Below, piece after piece: positions 31,011-56,449 of a stretch of 63,777 nucleotides of DNA (position 1 is its first letter; each line of letters opens with the position of its first letter). Under the pieces are notes generated by a model. The model saw nothing but the letters and a program-made list of their open reading frames with translations. It ran no database searches and was not told the DNA's origin. The position numbers and the translations under genes were made by a program. This DNA is from Verrucomicrobiota bacterium (GTDB taxonomy: Bacteria; Verrucomicrobiota; Verrucomicrobiia; Limisphaerales; Palsa-1400), in the NCBI GenBank assembly GCA_049510745.1, contig JBEKYR010000029.1:1-63777 (forward strand), written 5' to 3'.

Positions 31011-31017
31011 AGCTTGC

Positions 31018-32430: not shown

Positions 32431-32474
32431 ACACGCCGCCGCGGAACTTCGTCTGAACTTGTGCATGGAAACGA

Positions 32475-34548: not shown

Positions 34549-35967
34549 ATGAAATTTGATCGTTCTCGATACGCTTTGGCCGTGCCGCTGCTGGCGGCGG
34601 TTTGTGCCGTGGCCGCTCTGGTTTTCTGGTGGACGCGTCAGGGTCAAGACACCCTTTCCGAGCGGCTTCCCGGAGCCGATCAACCGCCCGGCGCCGACGG
34701 CGCGGCCGCGGTCAATCCCATTTTGGCCGGCAAGCTAATCCAAGGGAATGCCCAGCCGGGGAATCTCTCCGGCCTCTGGCCCCAGTTCCGCGGGCCGAAT
34801 CGCGACGGCATCAGCCCGGAAACCACGCCGCTGGCCCGTTCCTGGGACGCCGCCGGGCCGCGCCAGTTGTGGGCGGTGGATTGCGGGGAGGGTTATGCGG
34901 GCGCCGCCGTTCGCGACGGGCGCGTTTACCTCATGGATTACGACTATGACAAAAGGCAGAACGCGCTGCGCTGCCTCTCGCTGGCCGACGGCGGCGAGAT
35001 TTGGCGTTACGCCTACACGATGCCGGTCAAGCGCAACCACGGGATGACCCGCACCGTGCCCGCGGTCTCGGACAAATTCGTCGTGGCGATGGATCCCAAG
35101 TGCAATGTCCTTTGTCTGGACGCCGCCACGGGGGAATTGCGCTGGGGAATGAATCTGGTCAGGGAAGAGGGAGCGACCGTTCCGCCCTGGTACACCGGCC
35201 AATGCCCGTTCATCGACGGAAAAGCCGTCATTCTGGCTCCCGGCGGCCACGATGCCCTGCTCACCGCAGTGGAGCTTGAGACCGGAAAACCCCTCTGGCG
35301 CGCGCCTAATCCGCACGACTGGAAGATGACGCATTCTTCCGTGATGCCGATGGATTTTGGCGGGCAGCGGTTTTATGTCTATTGCGGCAGCGGCGGTGTG
35401 GCCGGCATTTCAGCCAGGGACGGAATCCTGCTCTGGGAAACCACCGCGTGGAAGATCAGCATTGCCACCGTGCCGTCGCCGCTCGTTCTCGACGGCGGGA
35501 AAATTTTCCTGGCCGGCGGCTACAACGCCGGGAGTCTCCTCCTCCAACTCCGGGACCAGGGCGGCAAGCTCGTGCCGGAAACGGTCTGGAAGCTGGCTCC
35601 CGAAGTTTTCGGCGCGGCACAACACACGCCCATTCTCCACGACGGCCGCCTGTTTGGCACGCGGCCCGATGGGCAATTCGTCTGCCTGGGTCTGGACGGC
35701 AAAGTTCTCTGGGCCAGCCCGGCGGGAGACCCCTTCGGCCTGGGTCCCTTCCTGTTTGCGGACGGCCTGTTCTTTGTGATGAACGATTCCGGCAAACTCA
35801 GCCTGGTGGACGACTCCCCGACGCGCTTCAAACTGCTGGCGCAGGCGCAAGTGCTCCAGGGCCGCGAGTCGTGGGGGCCGCTGGCGCTGGCCGGGGGACG
35901 TTTGCTGGCGCGCGACTTCACGCGCCTGGTCTGTCTGGACGTTGCGGCGGCCTCGCAACCGAAATAA
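34549..35967 (+). CDS. Membrane-anchored PQQ-like beta-propeller protein
   Basis: N-terminal TM, WPQFRGPNRDG, GEGYAG, SWGPLALAGGRLLARD. Confidence 0.82.
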   Translation: MKFDRSRYALAVPLLAAVCAVAALVFWWTRQGQDTLSERLPGADQPPGADGAAAVNPILAGKLIQGNAQPGNLSGLWPQFRGPNRDGISPETTPLARSWDAAGPRQLWAVDCGEGYAGAAVRDGRVYLMDYDYDKRQNALRCLSLADGGEIWRYAYTMPVKRNHGMTRTVPAVSDKFVVAMDPKCNVLCLDAATGELRWGMNLVREEGATVPPWYTGQCPFIDGKAVILAPGGHDALLTAVELETGKPLWRAPNPHDWKMTHSSVMPMDFGGQRFYVYCGSGGVAGISARDGILLWETTAWKISIATVPSPLVLDGGKIFLAGGYNAGSLLLQLRDQGGKLVPETVWKLAPEVFGAAQHTPILHDGRLFGTRPDGQFVCLGLDGKVLWASPAGDPFGLGPFLFADGLFFVMNDSGKLSLVDDSPTRFKLLAQAQVLQGRESWGPLALAGGRLLARDFTRLVCLDVAAASQPK

Positions 35968-36109
35968 TTCATTGGGCCTTGGCCAACTGCCATTCAGGAC
36001 TGACCCTTCGGCCCTCGTGATTTTTGGCTTGCGGTTGCCCTCGAAAGCTTCCAGTCTTTCGCCGACCATGAAACAAGAACTCGACCTGACAAAACAAGAG
36101 AAGGAATTT

Positions 36110-36781
36110 ATGCGCAAGATAAAACAGGCAACGCCGCAGTTCGGCGGGCTTTTCATTTCGGCCCTGGCTGGTTTGCTGCTGGCCGGCTGCCAATCCGCCA
36201 ACGAACCCGCTCCGGCTCCCCAACCGCAAACCCAATCGCCGGCCGCCGCCGCGCCGGCCGCCACCGTCGCCGTGCCCGCCGCGCCTGCCGCCACACCGGC
36301 GCCCGCGCCTGCCGACCCGACCAAGCCACAGCCCATCGTCCGCATCAAAGCCGGCGTTTCGGAACCGTTCAAGGATTCCGAAGGAAATGTCTGGCTCCCC
36401 GAGCAGGGATTTTTGGACGGGGATACGACGGATCGTCCCGACCTTAAGATCGAAAACACGAAAACCCCCTCCCTTTATCTGACAGAACGATACGGCATGA
36501 CCTCCTTCACTTACCCGGTTCTCAACGGCAAATACCTGGTCAAGCTTCATTTCGCCGAGACCTACGAAGGGATCACGGGGCCGGGCCAGCGGGTTTTTTC
36601 CGTCAACGTCCAGGGGCATGAGTTTAAGGACCTGGACATTTGGGTCAAAGCGGGCGGCCCGCTGCGCGCCTACGTCGAAAGCGTCCCGGTGGAAGTCACC
36701 GACGGCAAGGTGCAGATTACCTTCACGCCCAATGTGGAAAACCCCCAGATCAACGCCATTGAGATCATTCCCCAACCTTGA
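36110..36781 (+). CDS. Malectin-domain lipoprotein
   Basis: LLAGC lipobox, Pro/Ala linker, LYLTERYG, NGKYLVKLHFAETY, GQRVFSVNVQG, INAIEI; alternative start 36069. Confidence 0.85.
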   Translation: MRKIKQATPQFGGLFISALAGLLLAGCQSANEPAPAPQPQTQSPAAAAPAATVAVPAAPAATPAPAPADPTKPQPIVRIKAGVSEPFKDSEGNVWLPEQGFLDGDTTDRPDLKIENTKTPSLYLTERYGMTSFTYPVLNGKYLVKLHFAETYEGITGPGQRVFSVNVQGHEFKDLDIWVKAGGPLRAYVESVPVEVTDGKVQITFTPNVENPQINAIEIIPQP

Positions 36782-36866
36782 TCGTGAGGCCGCCTGTTTA
36801 GTTGGGCGCCAAAAGCGCCGATACCAGATGCAGAGATGTAATGCCCGTGAACCATGCGGGTAATGG

Positions 36867-38594
36867 ATGAAAGAAACAGGCACTAACTTGTCCGCGTTCC
36901 TGCAAAGCGACTCGTCGGAGCAATCTTCGCGGGAGTCGCAGGCGCTGCACTATTTGCTGCTGGATCAACTGCCGATCGGGGTTTTCCAAAAAGACAGGGA
37001 GGGCCGTTACATCTTCGTCAATTCATGGTTTTGCCGTCTCAGAAAGGCAACCCCGGGTCAATTCCTGGGCAAAACCCCCTCAGAAGTTGCCGCCCTCAAC
37101 TGGGCGCCCGAAGGCGCGGAGCATCCTGAGAGGTTGAGAGAAATCAAGCGGTCAGAGGAGGGATCCAGCCATCATGCGCTCATCATGCAGACCGGCCGGC
37201 CCATTGAAGCAGAAGAGTACTACGCGGATGTGGATGGCAAAGAGATGCATTTGCATGCGATTAAAGGGCCGTTAATCGGCCCTGATGGAACGATCGTTGG
37301 CTCGCAGGGCGTGTTATTGGATATCACGGAGCGCAAACGGACAGAGGCGCAGTTGGCCAGCGAGCGGGATTTGTTGCGGGCGCTGCTGAATTCCTCGATG
37401 GATGCCATTTATTTCAAGGACCGCGAATCGCGCTTCATTCGCAGCAGCGCCGTCATGGCTCGGAACTTCAACCTCCGCAGCCCGGACGAATTAATTGGCA
37501 AACGCGACTTTGACTTCTTCGGCAAGGAGCATGCCCAACAGGCCTTCGAGGACGAACAGGAAATCATCCGCACCGGCCGGCCAATGATTGGCAAGAGCGA
37601 GAAGGAAACCTACCCGGACGGACGTGTCACTTGGGCGCTGACCAGCAAAATGCCGCTCCATAACAGCCAGGGTGAAATCATCGGGACGCTCGGCATCTCC
37701 AAGGACATAACGGCCTTCAAGGAAGCGGAGGTCAAAGTGGAACAATTGCACCGGCAATTATTGCAGACTTCGCGGCAGGCCGGCATGGCCGAAATTGCCA
37801 CCAACGTCCTGCACAACGTCGGCAACGTCCTCAACAGCGTTAATGTCTCGGCCGCCCTCCTTTTGGAAACCACAAAGAAATCAAAAATCTCGTTCCTGGG
37901 CAAAGTCGTCGAGTTGCTGGACGAACACTCCGCCGATCTGGGCGCCTTCCTGGCCACTGACCCAAAAGGCAGGCAGTTGCCCGGCTATTTGGGCCGCCTT
38001 TTCGAGCAATTGGCCGGCGAGCAGCAGCGGACCATCGCGGAACTCGAATCGCTGCGACAGAACATTGAACACATCAAGGAAATCGTGGCGATGCAGCAGG
38101 CCTACGCCAGGGTTGCCGGTGTGACCGAAATCGTCAATGTGACCGATCTCGTCGAAGACGCCGTGCGGATGAACGCCGGAGCGCTGGTCCGGCATGATGT
38201 CGAGCTGGTTCGCGAATACGCTGAAGTGCCGGTCGTGACCATTGAAAAACACAAGGTGCTCCAGATTCTGGTGAACTTGATCCGCAATGCCAAGTATGCC
38301 TGTGACGATTCCGGGCGGGAAGGCAAGCAGGTCAGACTCAAGATCTCCAGGCATGATCCGTGGATCAGCATTGCGGTCGCTGATAACGGAGTCGGAATCC
38401 CCCCGGAAAACCTGACGCGCGTTTTCAACCACGGTTTTACGACACGCAAAGGCGGCCACGGCTTCGGCCTCCATAGCGGCGCGCTGGCGGCCAAGGAGTT
38501 GGGCGGCAGGCTGACCGCACAGAGCGAGGGCCTGGGCAAGGGGGCGACCTTCACGCTCGAGTTGCCCATGCAATCTCCCAAGAACGGCTCCTGA
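36867..38594 (+). CDS. Cytoplasmic PAS-PAS sensor histidine kinase
   Basis: Two PAS domains, H-box VLHNVGNVLN, N-box NLIRNAKYA, DNGVGI, GHGFGL. Confidence 0.92.
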   Translation: MKETGTNLSAFLQSDSSEQSSRESQALHYLLLDQLPIGVFQKDREGRYIFVNSWFCRLRKATPGQFLGKTPSEVAALNWAPEGAEHPERLREIKRSEEGSSHHALIMQTGRPIEAEEYYADVDGKEMHLHAIKGPLIGPDGTIVGSQGVLLDITERKRTEAQLASERDLLRALLNSSMDAIYFKDRESRFIRSSAVMARNFNLRSPDELIGKRDFDFFGKEHAQQAFEDEQEIIRTGRPMIGKSEKETYPDGRVTWALTSKMPLHNSQGEIIGTLGISKDITAFKEAEVKVEQLHRQLLQTSRQAGMAEIATNVLHNVGNVLNSVNVSAALLLETTKKSKISFLGKVVELLDEHSADLGAFLATDPKGRQLPGYLGRLFEQLAGEQQRTIAELESLRQNIEHIKEIVAMQQAYARVAGVTEIVNVTDLVEDAVRMNAGALVRHDVELVREYAEVPVVTIEKHKVLQILVNLIRNAKYACDDSGREGKQVRLKISRHDPWISIAVADNGVGIPPENLTRVFNHGFTTRKGGHGFGLHSGALAAKELGGRLTAQSEGLGKGATFTLELPMQSPKNGS

Positions 38595-38701: not shown

Positions 38702-38953
38702 ATGAACAGACGTTCTCCGAAATCCAGCGCCGGCCGCCGCCAATTTCTGCGCGACGGGCTGCGCTATGCCCTTCTTGGCGGGCTGGCTGCGATTAGCGGG
38801 AAGCTCATCGCCCGCCCGGCCGCCCGGCCTGCCGGCCAGGTCTGCATCAGCGCCGGCATTTGCCGGGGTTGCGCGGCTTTTGACGACTGCGGACTGCCCC
38901 AGGCCTTGTCCGCCAAGGAAGTCCTCGGCCATTCTTCATCGAGGTCACCATGA
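38702..38953 (+). CDS. Small Tat-signal protein with 4-Cys motif
   Basis: RRQFLR plus hydrophobic stretch; CISAGICRGCAAFDDC; ATGA overlap with next gene. Confidence 0.7.
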   Translation: MNRRSPKSSAGRRQFLRDGLRYALLGGLAAISGKLIARPAARPAGQVCISAGICRGCAAFDDCGLPQALSAKEVLGHSSSRSP

Positions 38954-39966
38954 AACCAGAATTGGAACTTTTCGACCGGCGGGAGTTTTTCGGTGTCGTA
39001 ACGAAAACCGCCGCCATTATCGGCCTGGCCGGCGCCGCCGAGGGGAGGGCGCAAGGACAGGGAACGGCCAACCCGTTTGCCTATGACCTTTCCCGTTTCC
39101 AGAAGACCGATCCCAAACTCATCACCTACGAGGAAGTGACGCGCTGGCCGATTCCCCACAAGGAAGCCCGGCGGCTGGCCATCGGGCCGGACGGCCAACT
39201 CTATGTCTGCGCGGGCAACTATATCAACGGCATGAGCCGGGCGGGTCAGCGCGGGCTGGAATTGGCGCTGGCGGGGCCGGCCTGCTGTGTCGCCGTGGCC
39301 GGGGACGGAACCATTTTCGCCGGCCTGCGCGACCACATAGAGGTATTTGACTCCAAGGGCGGGCGCGTGGCCCGTTGGGAATCGCCGGACCCGAAGACCT
39401 GGTTTACCGGCCTGGCGGCGGGGGAGAAGGATGTCTTTGCGGCCGATGCCGTGAAACTGGTCGTGCTGCGCTACGACCGCGCGGGAAAAATCGTCGGCCG
39501 CATCGGTCACAAGGATGCGGACCGGAATGTGCCGGGACTGATCGTGCCCAGCCCGTTCCTCGACGTGATCATTCATCGGGACGGCTTGTTGCGTGTCAAC
39601 AATCCGGGCCGCCATCGGATTGAAGCCTACACCTTTGACGGGGACCTGGAGGGCGCCTGGGGCAAACCCGCCGCCGCCATCGAGGGATTCTGCGGCTGCT
39701 GCAATCCCATCGGCCTCACCGCCTTGGCCGACGGGCGGATCGTCACCTGCGAGAAGGGCCTTCCCCGCGTGAAGATTTACAGCGCCACGGGCGAATTTGA
39801 GTCGGTGGTGGCGGGAACGGAATCGTTCCCGGAAAACGCCCACGCCTGCACGGACCTCAACGATTGCATCCACGGCGGAATCGATGCCGCGGCGGATGCC
39901 GACGGGCGAATCTACGTCCTGGACATCGTCACCAGCGACGTGCGGGTGATGAAGCGGAAAGGGTGA
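38950..39966 (+). CDS. Tat-exported NHL-type beta-propeller with FCGCCNP motif
   Basis: DRREFFG signal; NNPGRHRIE, FCGCCNP, EKGLPRVKIY. Confidence 0.72.
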   Translation: MKPELELFDRREFFGVVTKTAAIIGLAGAAEGRAQGQGTANPFAYDLSRFQKTDPKLITYEEVTRWPIPHKEARRLAIGPDGQLYVCAGNYINGMSRAGQRGLELALAGPACCVAVAGDGTIFAGLRDHIEVFDSKGGRVARWESPDPKTWFTGLAAGEKDVFAADAVKLVVLRYDRAGKIVGRIGHKDADRNVPGLIVPSPFLDVIIHRDGLLRVNNPGRHRIEAYTFDGDLEGAWGKPAAAIEGFCGCCNPIGLTALADGRIVTCEKGLPRVKIYSATGEFESVVAGTESFPENAHACTDLNDCIHGGIDAAADADGRIYVLDIVTSDVRVMKRKG

Positions 39967-39971
39967 AACGC

Positions 39972-40544
39972 ATGGACGCCAAACCTCCAGCGGACAGACC
40001 GGTGACGCGGCGCCAGTTTCTCCGCAACGGGGCGCGGCTGATGACGATGACCGGCCTGGGGGTGGCGGCGGGCGCGCTGGCCACCCGGACCACCAGCGCG
40101 GCGTGGGTGTGGCAAATCGACCCGGCCAAATGCCGGCGCTGCGGCAACTGCGCCACCCAGTGCGTGCTGGAGCAGTCCGCCGTCAAATGCGTCCACGCCT
40201 ACGCGGTTTGCGGCTACTGCCAGCTTTGCACCGGGTTTTTCGCGCCGGAACCCAACGCGCTGACCACGGCGGCGGAGAACCAGCTTTGCCCGACGGCCGC
40301 CCTCAAGCGCACCTACGTCGAAGACCCCTATTATCAATATAGTATCGACGAAAACCTCTGCATCGGCTGCGCCAAATGTGTCGAGGGCTGCAACCGTTTC
40401 GGCAACGGCTCGCTCTTCCTGCAAATCCGCCACGACCGCTGCGTCAACTGCAACGAGTGCGCCATCGCCCGCTCCTGTCCCGGCGACGCCTTCCGGCGCG
40501 TGCCGGTGGACCATCCCTACCTGCTCAAAACCACCAGCCGCTAA
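39972..40544 (+). CDS. Tat-exported polyferredoxin
   Basis: TRRQFLR; CRRCGNC..C, CGYCQLC, CIGCAKCVEGC, CVNCNEC..CP. Confidence 0.85.
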   Translation: MDAKPPADRPVTRRQFLRNGARLMTMTGLGVAAGALATRTTSAAWVWQIDPAKCRRCGNCATQCVLEQSAVKCVHAYAVCGYCQLCTGFFAPEPNALTTAAENQLCPTAALKRTYVEDPYYQYSIDENLCIGCAKCVEGCNRFGNGSLFLQIRHDRCVNCNECAIARSCPGDAFRRVPVDHPYLLKTTSR

Positions 40545-40548
40545 GGAT

Positions 40549-41865
40549 ATGCTTCGCCGTCTGAAATGCATCGGTGCGCTGGGAGTGATGTTGCTTTTGG
40601 CGCTGCTGGTTTCCGCCGAGCAACGTTTTCCACCGCCGGATTTTGAAAGCGGCTATCGCCTGCCCTCCGCCTCCACTCCCGCCGCGCGCCATCTTTGGCT
40701 GCAATATGCGGATGCGGGCGTGTTCCTCGCCGCCCTGGCAATGGCGGTCTGGCTGATTTACAAAAAACGCTCGCGGCGCGGGCTTTTCTGGCTCTCGCTC
40801 TTTTCCCTGGCGTATTTTGGGTTTTACCGCCAAGGCTGCATCTGCCCCATCGGTTCGCCGCAAAATGTCGTCTATGCGCTGTTCCACCCGGACTACGCGG
40901 CGCCGGTGACGGTGCTGATTTTCTGCTTCGCTCCCATCGTGGTGGCATTGTTTGCGGGGCGGGCTTTTTGCGCGGGGGTGTGCCCGCAAGGAGCGCTCCA
41001 GGATTTCATGCTGATCAAGCCCCTCACCGTGCCGCTCTGGCTGGAACAGGCGCTGAGCGTCGTGCCTTATATTTTTCTGGGCGCGGGCCTGATCTACGCC
41101 GGCACCGGGACGGGATTTGTCATCTGCCGTTATGATCCGTTCGTTCCGTTCTTTCGGCTCTCGGGCGGACTCTTCATCCTGACTGCGGGAGCGGCCTTTC
41201 TGCTGGCCGGGATGTTTGTGGGCCGGCCCTATTGCCGGTTTCTTTGTCCTTACGGCGGGTTGCTGAGGCTGGCGTCGATGGCTTCCAAATGGCGCGTCCG
41301 TGTCACGCCCGATACTTGCACGCAATGCCGCCTTTGCGAACAATCCTGCCCGTTCGGCGCGATGCGGGAACCCGCGCCCGCCGGAACCGATCCAACAGGG
41401 TTAAGACCGGAGCGAAAACGCCTCGGCTGGCTGCTGGCGCTTCTGCCTGTGCTCGTGGTTGTCGGCGCGTGGGCAGGCTCCCAACTCAGCCCGGCGGCCG
41501 CGCAACTTCATCCGGCCGTGGCCCTGGCCGAACGCTACGCGCGCCAGCAAAGCCATCCGGTGCAGTACGGCCTGATGACCCCGGAGGCGCTTTCGCTTGA
41601 ACGCGCCGCCGAGAATCCGGCCGAAGTCCTGAAGGCGGCGGCGGATTTGCGGCGCCGCTTTGATCTGGCCTGCTGGTTGTTCGGCGGCTGGGTTGGGCTG
41701 GTCATCGGTGTCAAATTGGTGGCGCTATCGGCGCGTCCGAGCAGGACCGATTATGAGCCGGATCGCGGCGCGTGTTTCGGCTGTGCCCGGTGCTTCACCG
41801 CGTGCCCCAACGAACGGGTTCGCCTCGGCCTGATGCCGGCGGCCGAAGGCCCCGCGCCGTCATGA
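40549..41865 (+). CDS. NapH/MauN-like membrane 4Fe-4S protein (putative quinol oxidoreductase)
   Basis: GCICPIG, GRAFCAGVCPQG, RPYCRFLCPYG, CTQCRLCEQSCP, CFGCARCFTACP; multiple TMs. Confidence 0.85.
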   Translation: MLRRLKCIGALGVMLLLALLVSAEQRFPPPDFESGYRLPSASTPAARHLWLQYADAGVFLAALAMAVWLIYKKRSRRGLFWLSLFSLAYFGFYRQGCICPIGSPQNVVYALFHPDYAAPVTVLIFCFAPIVVALFAGRAFCAGVCPQGALQDFMLIKPLTVPLWLEQALSVVPYIFLGAGLIYAGTGTGFVICRYDPFVPFFRLSGGLFILTAGAAFLLAGMFVGRPYCRFLCPYGGLLRLASMASKWRVRVTPDTCTQCRLCEQSCPFGAMREPAPAGTDPTGLRPERKRLGWLLALLPVLVVVGAWAGSQLSPAAAQLHPAVALAERYARQQSHPVQYGLMTPEALSLERAAENPAEVLKAAADLRRRFDLACWLFGGWVGLVIGVKLVALSARPSRTDYEPDRGACFGCARCFTACPNERVRLGLMPAAEGPAPS

Positions 41866-43622
41866 ACACTTCTTCTCTTCATCGCGCGCTTTTGCTCACC
41901 GCATGGATTGCGGGCGTGTTTTGCGCGCTGGTTTGCGGAGTCATGGTCTATGGGCATTTCGCGGCTGCCACCAACGATCCGTGGAAATCTCCGCAACTGC
42001 TCGCGCTCAAGGACAAGCTGGCGGCCGAACCGAAAAACGAGGCGCTGCAAAAGGAGATTCGGCAACTGGACCTGAAATTCCGCCAGAAGTTCCGCCATCG
42101 CCTCGCGCTGGACAAAACGGGCGCCTGGCTGCTGCTGGGCGGGACGCTGGCGCTCGTTCTGGCGGCCACGAAAGCGGCGGCCATCAAGAAAACACTCCCA
42201 CTGCCGCAGCCTAAGACGGATGCCGCCGAGGAGTCCTTAAAACTGGCCGCGCGCGCGCGTTGGTCCCTGGCCGGTGTGGGTCTGGTGGTGGCGGGTTCGT
42301 TGCTGATAATTCGACTGGGGAACACTTCCGTTTTGCCGGCCAGCCAGGCCGGCTGGCAAAAGCTCCTCGGCAAAGCCGGCCCGGAGGAGGCGCCGGCCGA
42401 GGAGGCGCCCCCCTTGTCCGCATTCCAGACCAATTGGCCGCGTTTTCGCGGATGGGACGGCAGCGGGGTTTCCACAAACGGCAGCGCGGCGCTCTCCTGG
42501 GACGCAAAAAACGGGGCCGCGCTCCTGTGGCGTTCCGCCATCCCGGCGCCGGGGCACAATTCGCCGGTTGTTTGGGGGGATAGTGTTTTCATTTCCGGCG
42601 GCACGGCGGAGCGGCGCGAAGTTTTCTGTTACAACGCTTCCAGTGGCGCGCTTCTCTGGCGACGGGCCATTGAAAATGTGCCCGGCAGCCCGCCCAAAAT
42701 TTCAGAGGCGCCGGAGGACACCGGCTACGCGGCCCCGACAATGGCGGCGGACGGGCGGCGCGTTTATGCCATTTTCAGCAACGGCGACCTTGGCGCGCTC
42801 ACTTTCGACGGCTCCGTTACCTGGACCAAATACCTCGGCCCGGTGAAGAATCCCTACGGCTACGCCGCTTCGCTGGCCGTGTGGGGAAACAGCTTGCTCA
42901 TTCAACTGGATCAGGGCGAGACGGGCGCGGCAGGGTCGAAACTGATCTCGTTGCAGGGCGCCAGCGGGCGGGTCTTGTGGGAGCGCAGCCGCCCTGTTCC
43001 CGCGTCGTGGGCCACGCCAATCGTGATCGAAGCGGCGGGCAAAACGCAGATCATCACCCTGGCCAATCCCTGGGTAATCGCCTACGCGCTGGCCGACGGC
43101 AGCGAGATTTGGCGGGCGCAATTGCTGGAAAACGAAGTGGTGCCGTCGCCTGTGTTTTCCGGCGGACTTGTCCTTGTGCTCAGTCCGGGGGCCAGGCTGA
43201 TGGCGCTGCGGCCCGACGGCGCAGGCGATGTGACGAAGACGGGCGTTGCCTGGGCCAGCGAGGAGAATGTTCCCGATATCACCAGCCCGGTCAGCAACGG
43301 CGAACTCGTTTTCACCGTGACCAGCGCCGGAATGGCGACGTGTTTTGAGGCCACCGACGGAAAAAAAATCTGGGAAAAGAATCTGGACACAGAGGTGCAG
43401 GCGTCGCCGGGCATGGCGGGCGGCAGGCTGTTCGTCCTGGGTGAAACCGGCGCGCTGGTGACGCTGTCAGCCGGACGCGAGTTTCACGAGATAGGGCGAA
43501 GCCAACTGCCGGACAAATTCGTCGCCAGCCCGGCCTTTGCCAACGGGCATGTCTTCCTGCGCGGAGTGACGAACCTGTATTGCCTGGGGCCAGCCGGCGC
43601 GAAACTGGCGAAACAACCGTAA
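41862..43622 (+). CDS. Membrane-anchored PQQ-like beta-propeller protein
   Basis: Three N-terminal TMs, NWPRFRG, GHNSPVVWG, SWATP, ASPAFANG. Confidence 0.82.
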   Translation: MNTSSLHRALLLTAWIAGVFCALVCGVMVYGHFAAATNDPWKSPQLLALKDKLAAEPKNEALQKEIRQLDLKFRQKFRHRLALDKTGAWLLLGGTLALVLAATKAAAIKKTLPLPQPKTDAAEESLKLAARARWSLAGVGLVVAGSLLIIRLGNTSVLPASQAGWQKLLGKAGPEEAPAEEAPPLSAFQTNWPRFRGWDGSGVSTNGSAALSWDAKNGAALLWRSAIPAPGHNSPVVWGDSVFISGGTAERREVFCYNASSGALLWRRAIENVPGSPPKISEAPEDTGYAAPTMAADGRRVYAIFSNGDLGALTFDGSVTWTKYLGPVKNPYGYAASLAVWGNSLLIQLDQGETGAAGSKLISLQGASGRVLWERSRPVPASWATPIVIEAAGKTQIITLANPWVIAYALADGSEIWRAQLLENEVVPSPVFSGGLVLVLSPGARLMALRPDGAGDVTKTGVAWASEENVPDITSPVSNGELVFTVTSAGMATCFEATDGKKIWEKNLDTEVQASPGMAGGRLFVLGETGALVTLSAGREFHEIGRSQLPDKFVASPAFANGHVFLRGVTNLYCLGPAGAKLAKQP

Positions 43623-43625
43623 CGT

Positions 43626-46010
43626 ATGCCAAGTGTGGACCTCAAATTTGTCGAGGAAGCGGTGGAGCGGATCGGGCGCAAACCCACGGCGCTGATCCCG
43701 ATCCTGCAGGCGCTGCAGGAACATCATGGCTACCTGCCCAGGGAGGCGTTGGAGCGCCTCGGCGAGCTGACCGAGATTCGCCCCTCCGCCATCTCAGGTG
43801 TTTCGACCTTCTACGACATGTTCCGCCACAAGCCGGCGGGCAAACACATTATCCGGGTCTGCCGCGGCACGGCCTGTCATGTGGCGGGAGCGGACCGGGT
43901 GGAGGAGGCGTTGCGGCGGCATTTGCGCATTCCGCCGGGCGCCGACACGGACGCGGCGCAGGAGTTCACCATCGAACGGGTCGCCTGCCTGGGTTGTTGC
44001 ACGCTCGCGCCGGTGGTGAAGATGGGCGACTCGACGATGGGATTCGCGTTCGCGGAAAAATCTCCGGACCAGGTGCGCGAGTATCTCACCCGGCAGACAG
44101 AGGCGGCAGGCGTGGAGTCCACCGAAGAAATGGAGCCTGCGGCCGGCAATGGCTTCGCGCAAATCCACGTTGGCCTCGGTTCCTGCTGCATGGCCAAAGG
44201 CAGCGCCCAGTTATTTCACGCGTTGCGCGAGAGCGCCGGCCAATGCGGCGGCCAGGTGGCCATCAAGCGGGTGGGTTGCATGGGAATGTGCCATCGCACG
44301 CCGATGATTGAAGTGGCGCTGCCGGGCCAGGCGGCCGCGTATTATTCGAACCTGACGCCCGGCCAGGCCGATGCCCTCATGCAACGGCATTTTCGTCCGC
44401 GCGGTTTTCTGCGCCGCGCGGGCCGGCTCTGGACACGGCTGCTGGACGGCCTGCTGCTGGAGGAGGCCGCGCCGCAACAACAGGTGGAGCGTTTCTCCAT
44501 GAGCAAACGCGATCCCGGTGTCCGCGCCTTCCTCGAAAACCAGGTGCATATCGCGACCGAACATTTCGGCAAACTCGATCCGCTGGACCTGGACGAATAC
44601 CTCGCCCATGAAGGCTTCGCCGCGCTCCGGCGGTGCCTGGAAACGCCGGCGCCGAAAACCAACGGCGCCCTTTCTCCGGAACAACTCATCGCCACCCTCG
44701 AACAATCCGGCTTGCGCGGACGCGGCGGGGCGGGATTTCCCAGCGGACAAAAATGGCGCGCCGTCCGGCAGCAGCCGGGCGATGTCAAGTATGCGATCTG
44801 CAACGGCGACGAGGGCGACCCGGGCGCGTTCATGGATCGCATGATTCTGGAATCGTTTCCGTTCCGCGTCATCGAGGGACTGGCGCTGGCGGCGGTGGCC
44901 GTGGGCGCGCACGAGGGCATTTTTTATGTCCGCCACGAATATCCGCTGGCGGTCAGGCGGGTGCGGGCGGCGATTGCGGAAATGGAAAAGCGCGGCTGGC
45001 TGGGGGCGACCTTGCTGGGCGCCGGCTTTCCCTTGCGACTGAGCGTGGTCGAGGGGGCCGGGGCGTTTGTGTGCGGCGAAGAGACCGCGCTGATCGCCTC
45101 GGTGGAAGGCCGGCGCGGGATGCCGCGGCTGCGGCCGCCCTTCCCCGCCGAGTCGGGCCTGTGGGGCAAACCGACGCTGATCAACAACGTGGAAACGCTG
45201 GCGTTGGCGCCGTGGATCGTCCGGCATGGGGCGGCGCGGTTCGCGGCCCTCGGCACGGTCAAAAGCAAAGGCACCAAGGTGTTCGCCCTGGCCGGAAAAA
45301 TTCGCCGCGGCGGGTTGATCGAAGTCCCGATGGGGACGAGTCTGCGCGCCATCGTCGAAGAGATCGGTGGCGGCGCGGCGGAAGGCCGGCGGATCAAGGC
45401 GGTGCAGATTGGCGGGCCGTCCGGCGGCTGCGTGCCCGCCAGCCTGATGGACACGCCGGTCGATTACGAATCGCTGCGCGAGGCCGGCGCGATCATGGGT
45501 TCGGGCGGGATGGTGGTGCTGGACGACACGTCGTGCATGGTCGATATCGCGCGGTATTTTCTCCAGTTCACCCAGGACCAGTCGTGCGGCAAATGCACGT
45601 TCTGCCGGGTCGGGACCAAGAGGATGCTGGATATTCTGGACAAGCTGTGCGCGGGCAAGGCGCAACGCGGGCACCTGGAGGAACTCGAAGTGCTGGCGCG
45701 CCAGGTCAGCGCCGGCAGCCTGTGCGGCCTGGGGAAAACGGCCCCCAATCCGGTGCTCTCGACCTTGCGCTACTTCCGCGGTGAATACGAGGCGCACCTG
45801 CAAGGCCGCTGCCCGGCGGGCCGGTGCGCCGCTCTTGTCAAGTATCGCGTCACCGCCGCCTGCACCGGCTGCACCCTGTGCGCCCAGCATTGCCCGGTCC
45901 ACGCCATCCCGATGGCGCCCTACGCGAAACACGAGATCGACCTGGAGGTTTGCACCCGGTGCGACACCTGCCGCAAGGTCTGCCCGGAAAACGCCATCGA
46001 GGCCGCATGA
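43626..46010 (+). CDS. NuoE-NuoF (HydC-HydB/BfuC-BfuB-like) fusion, FMN/NADH-binding Fe-S protein
   Basis: CRGTAC/CLGCC 2Fe-2S; second 2Fe-2S SCC..CMGMC; SGLRGRGGAGFP, NGDEGDPGAFMDR, GAGAFVCGEETAL, GGPSG, SCGKCTFC, two C-terminal 4Fe-4S motifs. Confidence 0.9.
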   Translation: MPSVDLKFVEEAVERIGRKPTALIPILQALQEHHGYLPREALERLGELTEIRPSAISGVSTFYDMFRHKPAGKHIIRVCRGTACHVAGADRVEEALRRHLRIPPGADTDAAQEFTIERVACLGCCTLAPVVKMGDSTMGFAFAEKSPDQVREYLTRQTEAAGVESTEEMEPAAGNGFAQIHVGLGSCCMAKGSAQLFHALRESAGQCGGQVAIKRVGCMGMCHRTPMIEVALPGQAAAYYSNLTPGQADALMQRHFRPRGFLRRAGRLWTRLLDGLLLEEAAPQQQVERFSMSKRDPGVRAFLENQVHIATEHFGKLDPLDLDEYLAHEGFAALRRCLETPAPKTNGALSPEQLIATLEQSGLRGRGGAGFPSGQKWRAVRQQPGDVKYAICNGDEGDPGAFMDRMILESFPFRVIEGLALAAVAVGAHEGIFYVRHEYPLAVRRVRAAIAEMEKRGWLGATLLGAGFPLRLSVVEGAGAFVCGEETALIASVEGRRGMPRLRPPFPAESGLWGKPTLINNVETLALAPWIVRHGAARFAALGTVKSKGTKVFALAGKIRRGGLIEVPMGTSLRAIVEEIGGGAAEGRRIKAVQIGGPSGGCVPASLMDTPVDYESLREAGAIMGSGGMVVLDDTSCMVDIARYFLQFTQDQSCGKCTFCRVGTKRMLDILDKLCAGKAQRGHLEELEVLARQVSAGSLCGLGKTAPNPVLSTLRYFRGEYEAHLQGRCPAGRCAALVKYRVTAACTGCTLCAQHCPVHAIPMAPYAKHEIDLEVCTRCDTCRKVCPENAIEAA

Positions 46011-47602
46011 GCGCGTTTACCATTAGTATTGATGGAAGGCAGGCGGAGGTTTTCCCGGGCCAGACGGTTTTGCAGGCCGCGCGGCAGATCGGCCTGGACA
46101 TTCCCACCCTTTGCCATCTGGAAAAGTGCGGGCCTCTGACCTCCTGCCAGGTTTGCCTGGTCAAGGTGGTGGCCAACGGCCAGAGCCGTTTGGTTCCGTC
46201 GTGCGCCACCCAGGCCGTGCCCGGCATGGTCATCGAAAGCGAAACCGAGGAAGTCCACGAGGCGCGGCGCACGGCGCTCGAATTGCTTTTCAGCGACCAC
46301 GTGGGTGATTGTCTTTCGCCGTGCCAGCGCCTCTGCCCGCTGCAACTGAACATTCCCGCGATGCTGCGGCAGATCGGGGCGGGCCGCCTGGACGAGGCGA
46401 TTACCACCATGCGCCAGGCGCTGCCGTTGGCGGGAGTGCTGGGCCGCCTTTGCCATCATCCTTGCGAACAAGGCTGCCGCCGCGGCGTTTTCGATGAACC
46501 GGCGGCGATCCGCGAGATGGAGCGGTTCTTGACAGAGCACGAACTCAAGCAGGAATCCCGGCAGGCCAGGGCGTGGCTGTCCGAACCCGCCGCCGTCGGC
46601 AAGCAGTCCGTGGTAATCGTTGGGGCCGGGCCGGCCGGGCTGGCGGCGGCGCATGACCTGGCGCGGCGCCGCCACGCCGTCACGGTCATTGACCGCCGCG
46701 CCAAGCCGGGCGGGAGGCTGCGCGACGTGCCGGAAGGCGAGTTGCCCGCCGCCGTGCTCGAGGCGGAAGTCGCGTTGCTGGCGGGGATGGGAATTGATTT
46801 CAAAACCGGCATCGAGTTGGGGACTCAAGTGACTTTGGACGGTTTGCAGCGCGGGTTCGACGCCATCCTGCTCGCCGTCGGCGAATTGGCCGAAGGCGAC
46901 GGCGGGAGACTTGGGGCGCCGCCGGCCGCCGCCGTGCTCAAGGCCGACCCGGCCACCTGCCGCGTCAGTCCGCCCAACGTTTTTGCCGCCGGCGCCTGCG
47001 TCAAGCCTGTCAAGCAAGTTGTCCGGGCCATGGCCGAGGGCCGGGCGGCGGCCGAGTGCGTGGACCGCTATTTGCGCGGCGAGCCGCCGCGTCGGCCCGG
47101 GAAACCGTTCTCCAGCGTCATGGGCCGATTGGAGCCGGGCGAACTGCGGGAATTCCTGCGCAACGCGAGCCAGGAGCACAGCGTGGCGCCGTGCGCCCGT
47201 TGCGCCGGGATCGACCGCGGCGAGGCGGTCCGGGAGGCGTCGCGCTGCCTGCATTGCGACTGCCGGTCGTCGGGCAATTGCGTGCTGCAGCACTACGCCC
47301 AAGTCTATGGCGCCGACGCCAACCGATTCCGGTCGGAGCGCCGGCCCTTCGAGCAGCAACTCCAGCCCGGCGGCGTCATTTTCGAGCCGGGCAAGTGCAT
47401 TTTGTGCGGGATTTGCGTGAAGCTGACGGAAATGGCGGCCGAACCGCTGGGCCTGACATTTATCGGGCGCGGCTTCGACGTGCGGTTGGCGGCGCCGTTC
47501 GACCGCCCGATCGAGGAGGGCTTGCGGGCGGTGGCGGAAGAATGCGTGCGGCACTGCCCGACGGGCGCGCTGGCGTTTGCCGATAAGGTTGCCGGCGCCT
47601 GA
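46007..47602 (+). CDS. NuoG/HydA-like 2Fe-2S + GltD/NfnB-like FAD domain + 4Fe-4S protein (StnC/BfuA-like)
   Basis: IPTLC..SCQVC..SC; DCLSPCQRLCP..LCHHPCEQGCRR; VGAGPAGL; RCLHCDC; KCILCGICV..CPTGAL; ATGA overlap. Confidence 0.82.
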   Translation: MSAFTISIDGRQAEVFPGQTVLQAARQIGLDIPTLCHLEKCGPLTSCQVCLVKVVANGQSRLVPSCATQAVPGMVIESETEEVHEARRTALELLFSDHVGDCLSPCQRLCPLQLNIPAMLRQIGAGRLDEAITTMRQALPLAGVLGRLCHHPCEQGCRRGVFDEPAAIREMERFLTEHELKQESRQARAWLSEPAAVGKQSVVIVGAGPAGLAAAHDLARRRHAVTVIDRRAKPGGRLRDVPEGELPAAVLEAEVALLAGMGIDFKTGIELGTQVTLDGLQRGFDAILLAVGELAEGDGGRLGAPPAAAVLKADPATCRVSPPNVFAAGACVKPVKQVVRAMAEGRAAAECVDRYLRGEPPRRPGKPFSSVMGRLEPGELREFLRNASQEHSVAPCARCAGIDRGEAVREASRCLHCDCRSSGNCVLQHYAQVYGADANRFRSERRPFEQQLQPGGVIFEPGKCILCGICVKLTEMAAEPLGLTFIGRGFDVRLAAPFDRPIEEGLRAVAEECVRHCPTGALAFADKVAGA

Positions 47603-47772: not shown

Positions 47773-50766
47773 ATGCCGAAGGTCGCCAGCTTTGAGTCAT
47801 TCGAGATGGAACTGTCCCGTCTGGTCGGCATCTTCGAACGCAGTCTGGCCGAGCTTAAAAGTTCCGGCTACGTGGAAGCGCAACTGCGCGACGATTTCCT
47901 CAATCCCTTCTTCCGCTCGCTCGGCTGGGATTTGGAGAATAGCGCGGGGCTGGTTCAAACCAAGCGGGAAGTCGAGATCGAGAGCCGCACCGAAATTGGC
48001 GGGCGGCAAAAGCGCGCCGATTATCTTTTTCGCACCGATGGTCATGATCGGTTTGTTTGCGAGGCCAAGAAACCTGCCGAGGAGCTTCACTCACGCTACG
48101 CCTTCCAGGCCAAACGCTATGCTTGGAATAAGAATCTGCCACTCGCCGTCCTGACCGATTTTGAGGAATTCAAAATCTACATCGTCGGCGGCAAGCCGCA
48201 CATGGATGAGCCGCTCGTCGGCCTTTGGAAAAGCTGGCACTTCCGGGAACTCCCGCTCGTTGCGCGGGAAATTTGGGACTTGCTCGCCCGCGACAAGATC
48301 GCCGCTGGCAGCATCGAACAGTTGCTTGAATCCCTGCCCAAAACCCCGCCGGGCAAAGGCAAGGCGCGCCAGCAATGGCTCATCAAGCCCGACCGTTCCC
48401 GCTCGCTCGACGTGGACTTTCTCAACTTTCTCGATGAAGCTCGCCGCGACCTCGCCTCCGACCTTATCCGCCACAACGACCGGGAGGACTTGCTTGAAGG
48501 CAGCCAGCTCAACGAAGCCGTCCAGCATATCCTCGACCGCATTCTTTTTCTCCGCATCTGCGAAGACCGCGACATTGATACTGGAGTCCTCCTTGTTTCC
48601 ATTGTCGAAACGTGGCGGCGGAACGGTGGGAAGCAAGAAGGGGTGCGTGCGCATCAAAAACCTCTTGAACTCCGCGAAGAGCCGCCCGCCGACTACGGTT
48701 ACAGCGGCATTCGCGCGCCCAAAGGATCCCTCTGGCGCGGCATCGTCCGGCACTTCCGCGCGCTTGACCGCCGCCCGCCATCGCACGTTCCCTATTTCAA
48801 CGGCAATCTTTTCAAGCCGCATTTCAGTGAGGAATTGATTGTCAGCGATGAATGGCTCGCCGGGTTTGTCGCGGATTTGAGCGACGATGAATCGCCTTAC
48901 CTCTTCAGCTACATTCCGGTCGAAATCCTCGGCACGATTTACGAGCGGTTTCTCGGCAAGATCGTCCGCCCGCAAGGACGCGGTGTGACCATCGAGGAGA
49001 AGCCGGAAGTCCGCAAAGCCGGCGGGGTTTATTACACCCCGCGCTACATCGTCGAATATATCGTGGCGCAGACGGTTGAGAAACTTCTGCATGACGCCAA
49101 GCCGGAAGCCACATTAAAACTCCACTTCCTGGATCCCGCCTGCGGTTCGGGCAGCTTTCTCCTGCGCGTGTTCGAGGTCGTATGTGAACACTGGGAGCAA
49201 TGGCTCATCGACCGGCCCGATGAACGCAAAAGGAAATGGTGCTGGGTGGATGAAAAGACCGGCAACGTTCACCTGACCATGGCGCTCAAGCGGCGGATTC
49301 TCACCAGCAACGTCTTTGGCGTGGACCTTGACCCCAGCGCGGTGGAAGTGACGCAACTCTCGCTCTACCTCAAAATGCTGGAGAATGAGAACCGCAATAC
49401 CCTCCAGCGCCAGCGCGAGCTCCTGCCCGAAGACGACGACCCGCTCCTGCCGCCGCTGGAAAACAACATCAAACGCGGCAACTCCCTGATCGCCTCCGAC
49501 TTCTCGGTGATCCCCGAAGACCTCGTGCGCGTTCACGCCTTCGATTGGAACGTCGGTTTCAAGGACATCATGAAAGCCGGCGGCTTCGATGCAGTCGTGG
49601 GCAATCCGCCTTACGGACGTCTGCTCGACGAATCAGGGGAAGAATATGCAGCAAATCATTTTTCAGGCTGTCGAGGGATTCCTGATGTTTATGTGGCTTT
49701 CATTGAAAGGGCGATTGGGATCATAAAAGTAAAAGGACGAATGTCCTTCATAGTTCCATCGGCTTGGCTCGGAGGCCCTGCTTACCGTTTTTTGCGCGAG
49801 CGTTTGCTTGAGTTTCAAGTTGAAGAAGTCATCGCGTTGCCGTTCGACGTTTTCGCGGACGCCTACATTGACACCGCAACGCTTGTTCTCAGCAAACAAT
49901 CAACCGATTCCAATGCGGTTGTCCGATGCTTTGCATACGCTAAGAAAGCAAAGCTGGAATCCATTAAATTAGCTAAAAGCCAATACAGCATCATTCCTCT
50001 CTCAGTCTGGAAAAACTCACCTGATCGGAAGTTTGTTTTGTCAGTAGGGGTTGCGAACTTGGTTGCACGTTTGTTAAAAGCATCAAAGACCCGCATTTCG
50101 GATTTTGTTGAGATGAAGCGCGGAGTGTTGTTTGACCAAAGCCTTTTGAAACCGAACAAAGCGAATAGAAATTCGCACCCCTATTTTGAAGGTGACGTTT
50201 ACCGCTACGACTTAAACTACGTTGCCCCAAGTTGGGTCGAATATGGCCCGAAGATGCGCGAATGGCCCAAGGAGTTTCGATGGTTTGAAGGAAAGCGTTT
50301 GTTGATGAGGCGTCTGGTGAATCGCCAACAACGTCTGATGACCGCTTCTGCCGAAGACACCTTCATTACGAACAAAAACCTTTATTCTCTTCTTGTCCGC
50401 AAGGACTCGGATTTGGAGGACGCTGGTATTGGTTTTATGCTTGGGGTTTTGAATAGCCGGCTGCTTTCACGCCTGTACCTGAGTCAAGTGCAGCAAGCAA
50501 CCAAGGATGATTTTCCCCAAGTAACCATTGCAGATGTGCTTGCGTTGCCTTGCCCGCGTCCTACGAGCAGCCAGCTTGTGAAGATTTCAGAACTCGCCAA
50601 AAAATATTCGGCGCTGATGCCCAAGCTGCGACAGGCGCGAAGCGAGTCGGAGCGGCAGACATTACAGAACGCCGTCACCGCCGCTGACCAGCAAATCGAC
50701 GCGCTGGTCTATGACCTTTACGGCCTGACCGAAAAAGAAATCAAACTGGTGGAAGACAACACATGA
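47773..50766 (+). CDS. Type IIG (Eco57I-like) restriction-modification enzyme
   Basis: HsdR_N-like nuclease RADY..CEAKK, GVYYTPRYIV, LDPACGSGSFL, VVGNPPY, TaqI-like C-terminal LGVLNSRL. Confidence 0.9.
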   Translation: MPKVASFESFEMELSRLVGIFERSLAELKSSGYVEAQLRDDFLNPFFRSLGWDLENSAGLVQTKREVEIESRTEIGGRQKRADYLFRTDGHDRFVCEAKKPAEELHSRYAFQAKRYAWNKNLPLAVLTDFEEFKIYIVGGKPHMDEPLVGLWKSWHFRELPLVAREIWDLLARDKIAAGSIEQLLESLPKTPPGKGKARQQWLIKPDRSRSLDVDFLNFLDEARRDLASDLIRHNDREDLLEGSQLNEAVQHILDRILFLRICEDRDIDTGVLLVSIVETWRRNGGKQEGVRAHQKPLELREEPPADYGYSGIRAPKGSLWRGIVRHFRALDRRPPSHVPYFNGNLFKPHFSEELIVSDEWLAGFVADLSDDESPYLFSYIPVEILGTIYERFLGKIVRPQGRGVTIEEKPEVRKAGGVYYTPRYIVEYIVAQTVEKLLHDAKPEATLKLHFLDPACGSGSFLLRVFEVVCEHWEQWLIDRPDERKRKWCWVDEKTGNVHLTMALKRRILTSNVFGVDLDPSAVEVTQLSLYLKMLENENRNTLQRQRELLPEDDDPLLPPLENNIKRGNSLIASDFSVIPEDLVRVHAFDWNVGFKDIMKAGGFDAVVGNPPYGRLLDESGEEYAANHFSGCRGIPDVYVAFIERAIGIIKVKGRMSFIVPSAWLGGPAYRFLRERLLEFQVEEVIALPFDVFADAYIDTATLVLSKQSTDSNAVVRCFAYAKKAKLESIKLAKSQYSIIPLSVWKNSPDRKFVLSVGVANLVARLLKASKTRISDFVEMKRGVLFDQSLLKPNKANRNSHPYFEGDVYRYDLNYVAPSWVEYGPKMREWPKEFRWFEGKRLLMRRLVNRQQRLMTASAEDTFITNKNLYSLLVRKDSDLEDAGIGFMLGVLNSRLLSRLYLSQVQQATKDDFPQVTIADVLALPCPRPTSSQLVKISELAKKYSALMPKLRQARSESERQTLQNAVTAADQQIDALVYDLYGLTEKEIKLVEDNT

Positions 50767-52752: not shown

Positions 52753-52753
52753 C

Positions 52754-54040: not shown

Positions 54041-54507
54041 ATCACCAGGTATTTGTCCTCCGCCACGCGCTGGCCTTTGTCCACCAGCAGCCGGTTGTCC
54101 TTGCTCAAAGTGACGGAGAACCACTCCAACGGGCGCGGAGCGGGGCCGCCTTTGACCAGGCCCTGGTCGTCAAACACGCTGCCATGACAGGGGCAATGAT
54201 AGCCTTTGCCGACACGGTTGACCGTGCAGCCAAGGTGGGTGCAGATGGCGGACAGGCAGCGGAACGTGTTGCCATTGCGCACGACAAAAACGCGCTCCGC
54301 ATCCAGGAACGTCACCGAACCGTCCAGGTAATCGTCCGGTTTGCCGGCCTTGAATCGCTGGTCCGGCTCGAAGAGGACGTTCGGCACCAGAAACCGCACG
54401 GTGCCCGCGGCGGAGGCCGTCACGGCGAAGACGGCCGCCAGCCAACCGAGGGTGAGTTGGAAAAAACCGCGTCGTGAAGTTTCGTTGCCGGGAGTAGAAG
54501 GGATCAT
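54037..54507 (-). CDS. Rieske 2Fe-2S protein
   Basis: Tat [27 protein letters not shown]. Confidence 0.95.
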
Positions 54508-54508
54508 A

Positions 54509-56431: not shown

Positions 56432-56449
56432 GGCCGTGCGGTCGGCGAA

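Follow-up and report, generated by a model that had tools for sequence, protein, structure and literature searches.

Electron-bifurcating Bfu enzymes are divided into classes according to the third substrate; in the membrane-bound classes described so far, the arm is that of a hydrogenase or of complex I. In the NfnABC and Stn enzymes, the third, mid-potential branch runs B1-A1-A2-A3-A6-A7-FAD-NADP (PMC12018979), and Bfu confurcation yields electrons near -400 mV (PMC9304861). A CX3CP module is common to the membrane proteins NapH, NosR and RdhC, and NapH, together with NapG, passes electrons from menaquinol to a periplasmic enzyme (PMC5928378). Statements taken here from papers cited by PMC number refer to the parts of those papers that were consulted. 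A gene set with features of both groups was analyzed in a 63,777-nucleotide stretch of DNA (hereafter the window; positions 1 to 63,777 of contig JBEKYR010000029.1, GenBank assembly GCA_049510745.1) from a Verrucomicrobiota bacterium of the Palsa-1400 lineage of Limisphaerales. An earlier reading of the window, made without database searches (the sequence-only reading), had proposed a redox chain across the membrane. Seven plus-strand open reading frames (ORFs), A to G, were found at 38702-47602, and P0 was added as the eighth member (Table 1). The eight-gene set is real, old and widely conserved, and no description of it was found in the literature searched, from which most subscription papers were out of scope. 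The cytoplasmic part is predicted to be a Bfu enzyme from which the NADP site has been deleted.

The sequence-only reading had described seven coupled genes, the first three with twin-arginine signals, and both statements were borne out. The junctions A/B, D/E and F/G are ATGA overlaps, and the remaining gaps are 5 nucleotides (B/C), 4 nucleotides (C/D) and 3 nucleotides (E/F); an alternative GTG start of C is possible at 39963. Twin-arginine motifs were found in A (RRQFLR), B (RREFFG) and C (RRQFLR), and RR-x-F was conserved in 72-74/74 A and 118-119/120 C homologues. In the Pfam and NCBIfam scans, NHL was assigned to B, Fer4 repeats to C, two Fer4_5 and one Fer4 to D, and PQQ_2 to E. A promoter and terminator scan inside the operon gave no interpretable signal, and an Rfam search found no element within it. 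A malectin-domain lipoprotein and a PAS histidine kinase (35942-38594, +) lie between P0 and A. Both are local insertions, as the malectin gene was present only in a few close relatives and an orthologue of the kinase in 0/20 loci compared.

Table 1. Positions in the window and descriptions of the eight genes of the set
Gene	Position	Strand	Length (amino acids)	Description
P0	34549-35967	+	472	N-terminally anchored eight-bladed PQQ_2-type propeller; eighth member
A	38702-38953	+	83	Twin-arginine peptide with Cx5Cx2Cx5C motif
B	38950-39966	+	338	Twin-arginine six-bladed NHL propeller
C	39972-40544	+	190	Twin-arginine polyferredoxin, putative NapG-like role
D	40549-41865	+	438	Predicted haem-free membrane Fe-S protein, NapH/NosR/RdhC type
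E	41862-43622	+	586	Three membrane helices and a PQQ_2-type propeller
F	43626-46010	+	794	NuoE (BfuC) fused to HydB/NfnB-type BfuB
G	46007-47602	+	531	BfuA of NfnA/StnC type without the NADP domain

The best solved relatives of F were 9n5u_B, 9bov_B and 8oh5_B, with E-values of 1e-200 or lower. Its Pfam domains (2Fe-2S_thioredx, Complex1_51K, SLBB, NADH_4Fe-4S and two Fer4) comprise those by which BfuB (FMN, SLBB, N3-type cluster and two C-terminal [4Fe-4S] clusters) and BfuC ([2Fe-2S]) are defined. Conservation was counted in 72 full-length sequences, the window's F included and one frameshifted row dropped. The NADH-site motif N[GA]DEGDPGAFMD and GGPSG were each present in 72/72, and PPFP, which holds the F367-type Phe, was present in 66/72; the window's F carries GDEGDPGAFMDR, PPFP and GGPSG. 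The FMN/NAD site, C1, B1 and the other Bfu cluster motifs were aligned in the 72 homologues, with two [4Fe-4S] motifs at the C-terminus. The marks of bifurcating beta subunits, namely A/E232 and M234, F367, and GGPSG, are found in F, although they were defined on hydrogenases (PMC7311640). The proposed bifurcating-type module (HydBC/BfuBC) was thus supported at the sequence level by the F motifs and by the solved NfnABC/Stn relatives, and F-G is, judged by sequence, a member of the Bfu family and not of the Nfn/Stn group.

For G, the best solved relatives were 9bov_A, 8oh5_C and 9n5u_A. Its Pfam domains were Fer2_4, Fer4_20, a Rossmann domain and Fer4, of which Fer2_4 and Fer4 provide the [2Fe-2S] and [4Fe-4S] domains of BfuA, while the NADP-binding domain of Nfn-Bfu/Stn was absent. 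Aligned with StnC, G formed two blocks separated by a gap at approximately 290-460 and ended at approximately residue 672 of 1172, so that StnC extends about 500 residues past it. The label "glutamate synthase small chain" was therefore rejected for G, which is best described as a truncated NfnA/StnC and is understated by the term GltD-like of the sequence-only reading. After fragments, frameshifted rows, unrelated flavoproteins and one hydrogenase had been dropped, 72 G-type rows were compared, comprising nine long G, 56 short G and seven in which only the iron-sulfur (Fe-S) domains were left, fused to F. The long G have 189 residues between two FAD-domain strands and a GGGNTAMD motif, which occurred in no other of the 72 rows. 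The same interval was 42-44 residues in 51/56 short G and shorter still in the other five. With 43 residues against 189, the window's G has a 146-residue NADP domain deleted, and no NADP motif was found in the metagenomic G either.

The FAD site was compared by way of Asp466 of T. sibiricus NfnA, the Asp of a GD motif, which binds FAD (PMC12018979). When this position was mapped onto G from the alignment to the solved relatives, the Asp was found in 9/9 long G, 1/56 short G and 3/17 metagenomic short G; in the window's G the position is A330, and the FAD-binding Asp of Nfn-Bfu/Stn is thus missing. One C-terminal [4Fe-4S] motif was incomplete in 72/72 G and the C-terminal extension was absent, while most short G retained the Rossmann GxGPxG and the ligands of clusters A6 and A7. 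As the NADP domain is lost and the FAD Asp usually lost with it, the third-substrate site of the Bfu enzyme appears to be vacated. In a quick tree of 52 G rows, rooted on two distant GltD, 41 short G formed one clade (0.998) beside the nine long ones, and in the F tree the seven included long-G loci formed one clade (100) nested among short-G loci. Consequently, the NADP-less G is taken to be old and maintained. The simplest reading is one old deletion, followed by replacement with an intact gene in one subclade, an order suggested by a tree with a distant root. A 23S rRNA-intervening-sequence-type gene was seen between F and G at L104:9065-9568 and in loci L084, L092, L101, L111 and L115, mostly long-G loci.

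The state of G bears on whether the eight genes work together. It is improbable, in our judgment, that F-G is a self-contained cytoplasmic enzyme with an altered flavin site and a new soluble substrate, the other genes forming a separate envelope thiol-redox or assembly system with the adjacent cysteines of B as redox site and BamB-like proteins as scaffolds. The GxGPxG and A6/A7 ligands retained in most short G would agree with such an enzyme, P0 and E are BamB-like by fold, and thiol-redox domains are known to accompany some NHL propellers (SOQ1, 7djk, and NHLRC2, 6gc1, both among the fold matches of B). However, the whole flavin domain was lost in loci L141, L146, L238 and L244 and in the seven F-G fusions while the operon was otherwise intact, which indicates that no flavin chemistry of G is essential. 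Moreover, the tight coupling and co-inheritance of the genes suggest one system.

A catalytic subunit of a described type was looked for inside and outside the operon. No H-cluster, NiFe or molybdopterin family matched A-G in the Pfam and NCBIfam scans, in agreement with what the sequence-only reading had stated. Its further point, that no known catalytic subunit stands beside the operon, also held, as the clustered neighbour ORFs of loci L041-L160, not every one of which was annotated, contained no recurring catalytic redox family. This point is strengthened by G, since the deleted NADP site is the one normal catalytic site of the G family. It is hardly to be expected that F-G serves as the docking site of a catalytic subunit of known type (hydrogenase, formate dehydrogenase or Rnf) whose gene lies elsewhere. 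A formate dehydrogenase-type and two NiFe-type large subunits are encoded on contig C33 of the same genome and could be partners, but they sit among partner subunits of their own; the two molybdopterin hits of the genome were this formate dehydrogenase-type gene and, among the complex I genes, NuoG. In addition, neither an FeFe hydrogenase nor an RnfD match was found in the genome, which is 94% complete, and no such subunit was evident from the ORF starts, read by eye, beside F-G where these are unlinked from the rest.

D contains two CX3CP motifs (C141/C145 and C229/C233) and two ferredoxin motifs (C257-C267 and C409-C419), the cysteines being conserved in 104-110/110 homologues, and thus has the two CX3CP and two [4Fe-4S] motifs of a NapGH-type membrane subunit. 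Its matches to the NapH models (E 7e-12; 45.4 against 213 bits and 44.7 against 234 bits) were below the cut-offs, and no solved relative was found by sequence beyond generic ferredoxins. D has a signal peptide, and its two-cluster ferredoxin is interrupted by an extra helix pair. From hydropathy and K/R charge, the invariant C97, C99 and C193 are predicted to lie outside and the CX3CP and ferredoxin motifs inside. C has 16 invariant cysteines (120/120), which would hold four [4Fe-4S] clusters. The label "RnfB", which automatic annotation often gives to C, was rejected for it, as C scored 20.8 bits against the RnfB/RsxB cut-off of 203 in a genome without an RnfD match. In A, for which there was no Pfam match, C48 was conserved in 71/74 and C54, C57 and C63 in 74/74; in loci L137, L142, L145 and L150, C itself begins with a fused segment that has four cysteines and resembles A, and A is probably an extra Fe-S or metal module of C. 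E is 24% identical to P0 over 417 columns and has a conserved R67/D70/R74 loop without any conserved Cys or His, and is probably a membrane anchor or scaffold.

The sequence-only reading had suggested that the propellers may be the catalytic or substrate-binding parts of the system, possibly with the propeller at 34549-35967, that is, P0. Among 61 relatives, P0 was present in 24/25 genomes with C and in 0/36 without it, although on a different contig from C in 10/24. As P0 also stands directly before B in many lineages and is fused to B in two loci, its membership was confirmed. Ten of its residues (D130, C142, H164, R168, W214, Q218, C219, H262, Y325 and Q358) were invariant in 54/54 sequences, and P0 is the best candidate for a catalytic or ligand-binding subunit. 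B has an invariant G249-C250-C251 and an E268-K269-x3-R273 motif, with GCC and E268 kept in 113/113 sequences and GCC[ND]P in 57/57 metagenomic ones. In line with the suggestion, P0 and B have conserved His/Cys residues such as a working site would be expected to show, whereas E looks structural. The models of P0 (pLDDT 92) and B (pLDDT 94.7) were closest to tetrathionate hydrolase 6l8a and BamB (17-20% identity) and to TRIM/Brat NHL folds (Z ~31, 14-17% identity), respectively; the fold searches returned generic BamB-type and NHL matches, with no enzyme prominent. P0 and E scored 22.6 and 30.3 bits against the 480 bits of the PQQ-dependent dehydrogenase family (TIGR03075). B shrinks to 208-270 residues, about half a propeller, with an N-terminal hydrophobic anchor in loci L144, L146, L148 and L151-L155, and these half-size B retain only the GCC[ND]P/EKG region. 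Paralogous B in L156-L159 have two CC motifs on neighbouring blades.

The nearest folds of P0 also include quinoprotein dehydrogenases, which, with tetrathionate hydrolase, speak for an inward flow of electrons. Such a flow through the same wiring, which we consider rather unlikely, would mean that P0 and B oxidise a low-potential periplasmic substrate (an aldehyde, an aldose or a reduced sulfur compound) and that the Bfu core divides the electrons between NAD and ferredoxin, in the manner of the cytoplasmic Wor-Bfu and Fdh-Bfu. Type 2 and 3 Bfu enzymes do receive electrons from extra subunits via BfuA (PMC9304861). Furthermore, in one locus a paralogous B-B-C-D set (L159:9354-18843, -) comes immediately after the genes of a trimeric FeFe-hydrogenase, in the same orientation. 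However, P0, B and E show no Mo/W, NiFe, flavin or haem site that could hold electrons of about -400 mV, and the membrane halves found without F would have no sink but quinone. Inward electron movement also opposes the membrane potential, which counts against this direction.

Gene order was counted only at loci with enough flanking DNA. In 80 genome loci, B was found in 66/66, D in 70/70, E in 58/58, F in 51/54 and G in 49/51, with P0 within 7 kb in 19/51. In 40 phylum-sample loci, the counts were 31/38 for B, 38/39 for D, 29/37 for E, 23/36 for F and 24/35 for P0; a separate G was found in 14/36, and G was fused to F in seven more. In 80 metagenomic loci, B was found in 36/42, D in 45/50, E in 30/35, F in 18/22, G in 17/21 and P0 in 19/25. 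The order was maintained across Verrucomicrobiota and metagenomic lineages, and as it was kept in nearly all related loci with enough DNA, the gene set is not a product of chance. The closest loci were from Verrucomicrobiota, including Limisphaerales and Pedosphaera. C matched in 50/401 genomes of the phylum and had 5534 homologues at E<=1e-20 among 5775 candidates, the named ones including Kiritimatiellales, Planctomycetota and Chitinispirillia; look-alike Atlas clusters, used as a lead only, were commonest in Planctomycetota, Bacteroidota, Verrucomicrobiota and Acidobacteriota.

The reading that we prefer, tentatively and with a confidence just short of even, is that electrons from NADH and ferredoxin pass from G to D, C and then P0 and B, where they would drive a periplasmic reduction at low potential in connection with an envelope compound. 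It starts from the observed genes, their order and motifs, the NADP-domain deletion and the co-inheritance of P0. F, with FMN, NAD(H) and a ferredoxin site, and G would form the cytoplasmic Bfu core of a haem-free membrane-spanning oxidoreductase. As the NADP end is deleted, the mid-potential branch most likely ends on a protein partner, and this end may dock on the cytoplasmic ferredoxin/CX3CP face of D; such docking is most plausible because D is the sole operon product besides F and G with cytoplasmic clusters. Within D, the electrons would then cross the membrane to reach the three outer cysteines, and C, with A, would relay them. P0 and B would perform the periplasmic chemistry, and E would hold the propellers at the membrane. 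Outward flow seems likelier, in that NADH and reduced ferredoxin could be combined into electrons of about -400 mV, which would serve a periplasmic reduction beyond the reach of quinol. In this scheme the cofactors, the topology, every contact, the direction and the substrate are predictions from sequence. The preferred reading agrees with the Bfu motifs kept in 72/72 F while G erodes stepwise, with the A-C and P0-B fusions, and with the CX3CP pair and outer cysteines of D.

Several observations weigh against this reading. Six of the 72 F carry Tyr where non-bifurcating enzymes do (PMC7311640), and as short G keeps GxGPxG, a flavin with another small-molecule partner is possible. Ten genomes, selected because F did not adjoin E, were searched for the F fusion elsewhere; it was found in four (G143, G257, G317 and G438) and in part in G049. 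It was not found in G036, G043, G086, G236 and G347, which are 91-97% complete and hold B-(A)-C-D-E, and the membrane half can thus presumably run without the Bfu core. F-G was distant from C-D in G257, G317 and G438, G143 had no G after F, and searches of four f68-family genomes with C, D and an E-like gene did not find B. The window's genome (G000) lacks the terpenoid genes described below, and in the window's family, C occurred in 13/30 genomes, the DUF116-synthase in 1/30 and both in none. The sequence-only reading had named lack of conservation as a unit as a ground for refutation: the order was kept broadly, but with the F fusion not found in five genomes, B not found in four and F-G sometimes unlinked, the unit is modular rather than fixed.

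This modularity would suit a different arrangement, in which D-C is a NapGH-like quinol dehydrogenase feeding P0 and B, and F-G is a separable NADH/ferredoxin module whose usual co-transcription would reflect its recharging of the quinone pool or of a soluble carrier. We regard it as unlikely but deserving of serious consideration. NapH and NapG move menaquinol electrons to a periplasmic enzyme (PMC5928378), the membrane half exists without the F fusion in the five genomes and F-G is unlinked in three or four, and paralogous B-C-D sets without P0, E, F or G were found (L156-L158). On the other hand, F-G itself includes neither a quinone-binding nor a membrane subunit, the full Bfu core was kept in 72/72 F despite the loss of the NADP end, and F followed E in 51/54 genome and 18/22 metagenomic loci. 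Moreover, the extra helix pair and outer cysteines of D are not described for NapH.

Two gene sets recurred beside the operon at loci of at least 15 kb. Set 1, comprising a small propeller (P3), a GT4 with an invariant YCxxCxRD, an ABC ATPase and a large FtsX-type permease, was found in 11/18 metagenomic loci, 11/34 phylum loci and 1/44 genome loci near the window's lineage. In the window's genome, orthologue-level matches to set 1 were scattered on other contigs; at contig C26:39996-44387, the genes after the P3 orthologue encode, as read from the sequence, a HemN-like radical SAM protein and a flavin-dependent halogenase-like or reductase-like protein. The GT4 was present in 43/401 phylum genomes, and all but three of these 43 also contain C or the acid-reducing module described below; in the order, the GT4 was near universal (53/61). 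Set 2, comprising a ferredoxin, a radical SAM protein, a DUF116-polyprenyl synthase, a prenyltransferase toroid and an SHC-like cyclase with DxDDTA, was found in 16/34 phylum, 2/18 metagenomic and 0/44 genome loci. The DUF116-synthase, searched with a profile built from nine genes adjoining C, was present in 53/401 genomes, a total that includes 44 of the 50 C-positive ones. The same genomes carried C and the synthase in families f52 (5/65), f59 (5/24), f57, f58, f53 and f60, although these kin are not independent (f59 is one genus). In the rest of the window's order, C occurred in 11/30 genomes and the synthase in 17/30, with six shared. As the two are uncoupled in the window's family, an obligate link of the operon to terpenoid synthesis was rejected.

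The recurrence of the GT4, the FtsX-type ABC transporter, the further propellers and the SHC-like cluster suggests that a prenyl- or glyco-compound of the envelope may be made or recycled. A more specific proposal, which remains doubtful, is that the operon is the redox arm of an envelope pathway. The SHC-like cyclase, DUF116-prenyl synthase, radical SAM protein, CxxC-bearing GT4 and FtsX-type ABC transporter would synthesise a redox-active compound, prenylated or glycosylated, and carry it out of the cytoplasm. A new class of Bfu enzyme that faces the periplasm would feed low-potential electrons through a haem-free Fe-S wire to P0 and B, which would bind the compound in place of PQQ and reduce it. 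If this were true, a function would be given to the SHC-like clade, to whose cyclases in PVC and FCB bacteria the literature assigns no function (PMC7306690, PMC12324236), and to a large share of the "PQQ-like" propellers of PVC bacteria, and electron confurcation would be shown to drive chemistry outside the cytoplasm. The link to the SHC-like cluster is a testable handle on the cyclase product and on the role of the propellers in PVC and Bacteroidota anaerobes.

An acid-reducing module (24146-33641, +) lies upstream in the window and comprises two propellers, a short peptide, a sodium:solute symporter, an adenylating enzyme, an aldehyde-dehydrogenase-fold protein and an iron alcohol dehydrogenase. 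The adenylating enzyme was present in 49/61 relatives, compared with 25/61 for C, and in 9/401 phylum genomes, all nine with the same GT4, but in only 2/50 C-positive phylum genomes; this distribution weakened the module as a candidate part of the redox operon. Locus L180 joins the acid-reducing module to P3-GT4-ABC. Downstream of the operon, 51364-59698 (-) encodes an AraC-type regulator, c-type cytochromes, a porin-like protein, an intact GltD-type flavoprotein with an extra Fer4, a Rieske protein, a cytochrome b and a multihaem cytochrome c, the regulator, porin and Rieske protein being read from the sequence only; these genes may form an NAD(P)H-flavoprotein-linked Rieske/cytochrome b complex. 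A MISL RNA (RF03079, 335.8 bits) extends up to 23386 (+), its start being lost at the 23000 edge of the searched stretch. Large restriction-modification-type methyltransferase genes, named from motifs, lie in lower-GC stretches at 47773-50766 (+) and 11420-14947 (+).

Compared with described systems, P0 and B share with BamB, tetrathionate hydrolase, PQQ dehydrogenases and NHL propellers the fold alone, at <=20% identity; the His/Cys/Gln set of P0 and the GCC-EK-R set of B are specific to the operon, and all family scores were below the cut-offs. Neither RnfB-level similarity nor the RnfACDEG set of Rnf was found. With NapGH, NosR and RdhC, the operon shares a twin-arginine polyferredoxin and a membrane protein with two CX3CP and C-terminal [4Fe-4S] motifs. 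No NapA/NosZ-type terminal reductase partner was present among the recurring neighbours, and in contrast to NapGH, D adds a signal peptide, a helix pair splitting the ferredoxin and three invariant outer cysteines, and a Bfu module follows. The cyclase beside many copies of the operon, a putative member of the SHC-like clade, keeps DxDDTA and is accompanied by the ferredoxin, radical SAM protein and DUF116-polyprenyl synthase of set 2. The range of this clade (PVC, FCB, Spirochaetota and Acidobacteriota) resembles that of C, and the redox operon is not mentioned in the consulted parts of the two papers (PMC7306690, PMC12324236).

The closest likeness is to NfnABC/StnABC (9n5u, 9bov and 8oh5), with the same BfuBC core, an inserted GltD-like FAD domain and clusters A6 and A7 in BfuA, on a mid-potential path that runs FAD-A7-A6-A3-A2-A1-B1 in NfnABC (PMC12018979). 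Unlike these enzymes, the operon has BfuC fused to BfuB, the NADP domain deleted and membrane and periplasmic proteins co-encoded. The natural G series, from intact to Fe-S only, offers controls for entry into the mid-potential branch. The Mbh-Bfu and Nuo-Bfu enzymes likewise have the Bfu core inside a larger membrane operon, but with hydrogenase or complex I membrane arms (PMC9304861). In the consulted parts of that paper, clades 1-17 are unassigned and no NapH-type class is named, and "periplasm", "propeller" and "Verrucomicrob" do not occur in its main text. As the third-substrate site is kept deleted across many lineages and the Bfu core is coupled to a NapGH-like pair and propellers, the operon is predicted to represent, beside the hydrogenase- and complex I-linked forms, a new class in which electrons are exported (or imported) by a haem-free route.

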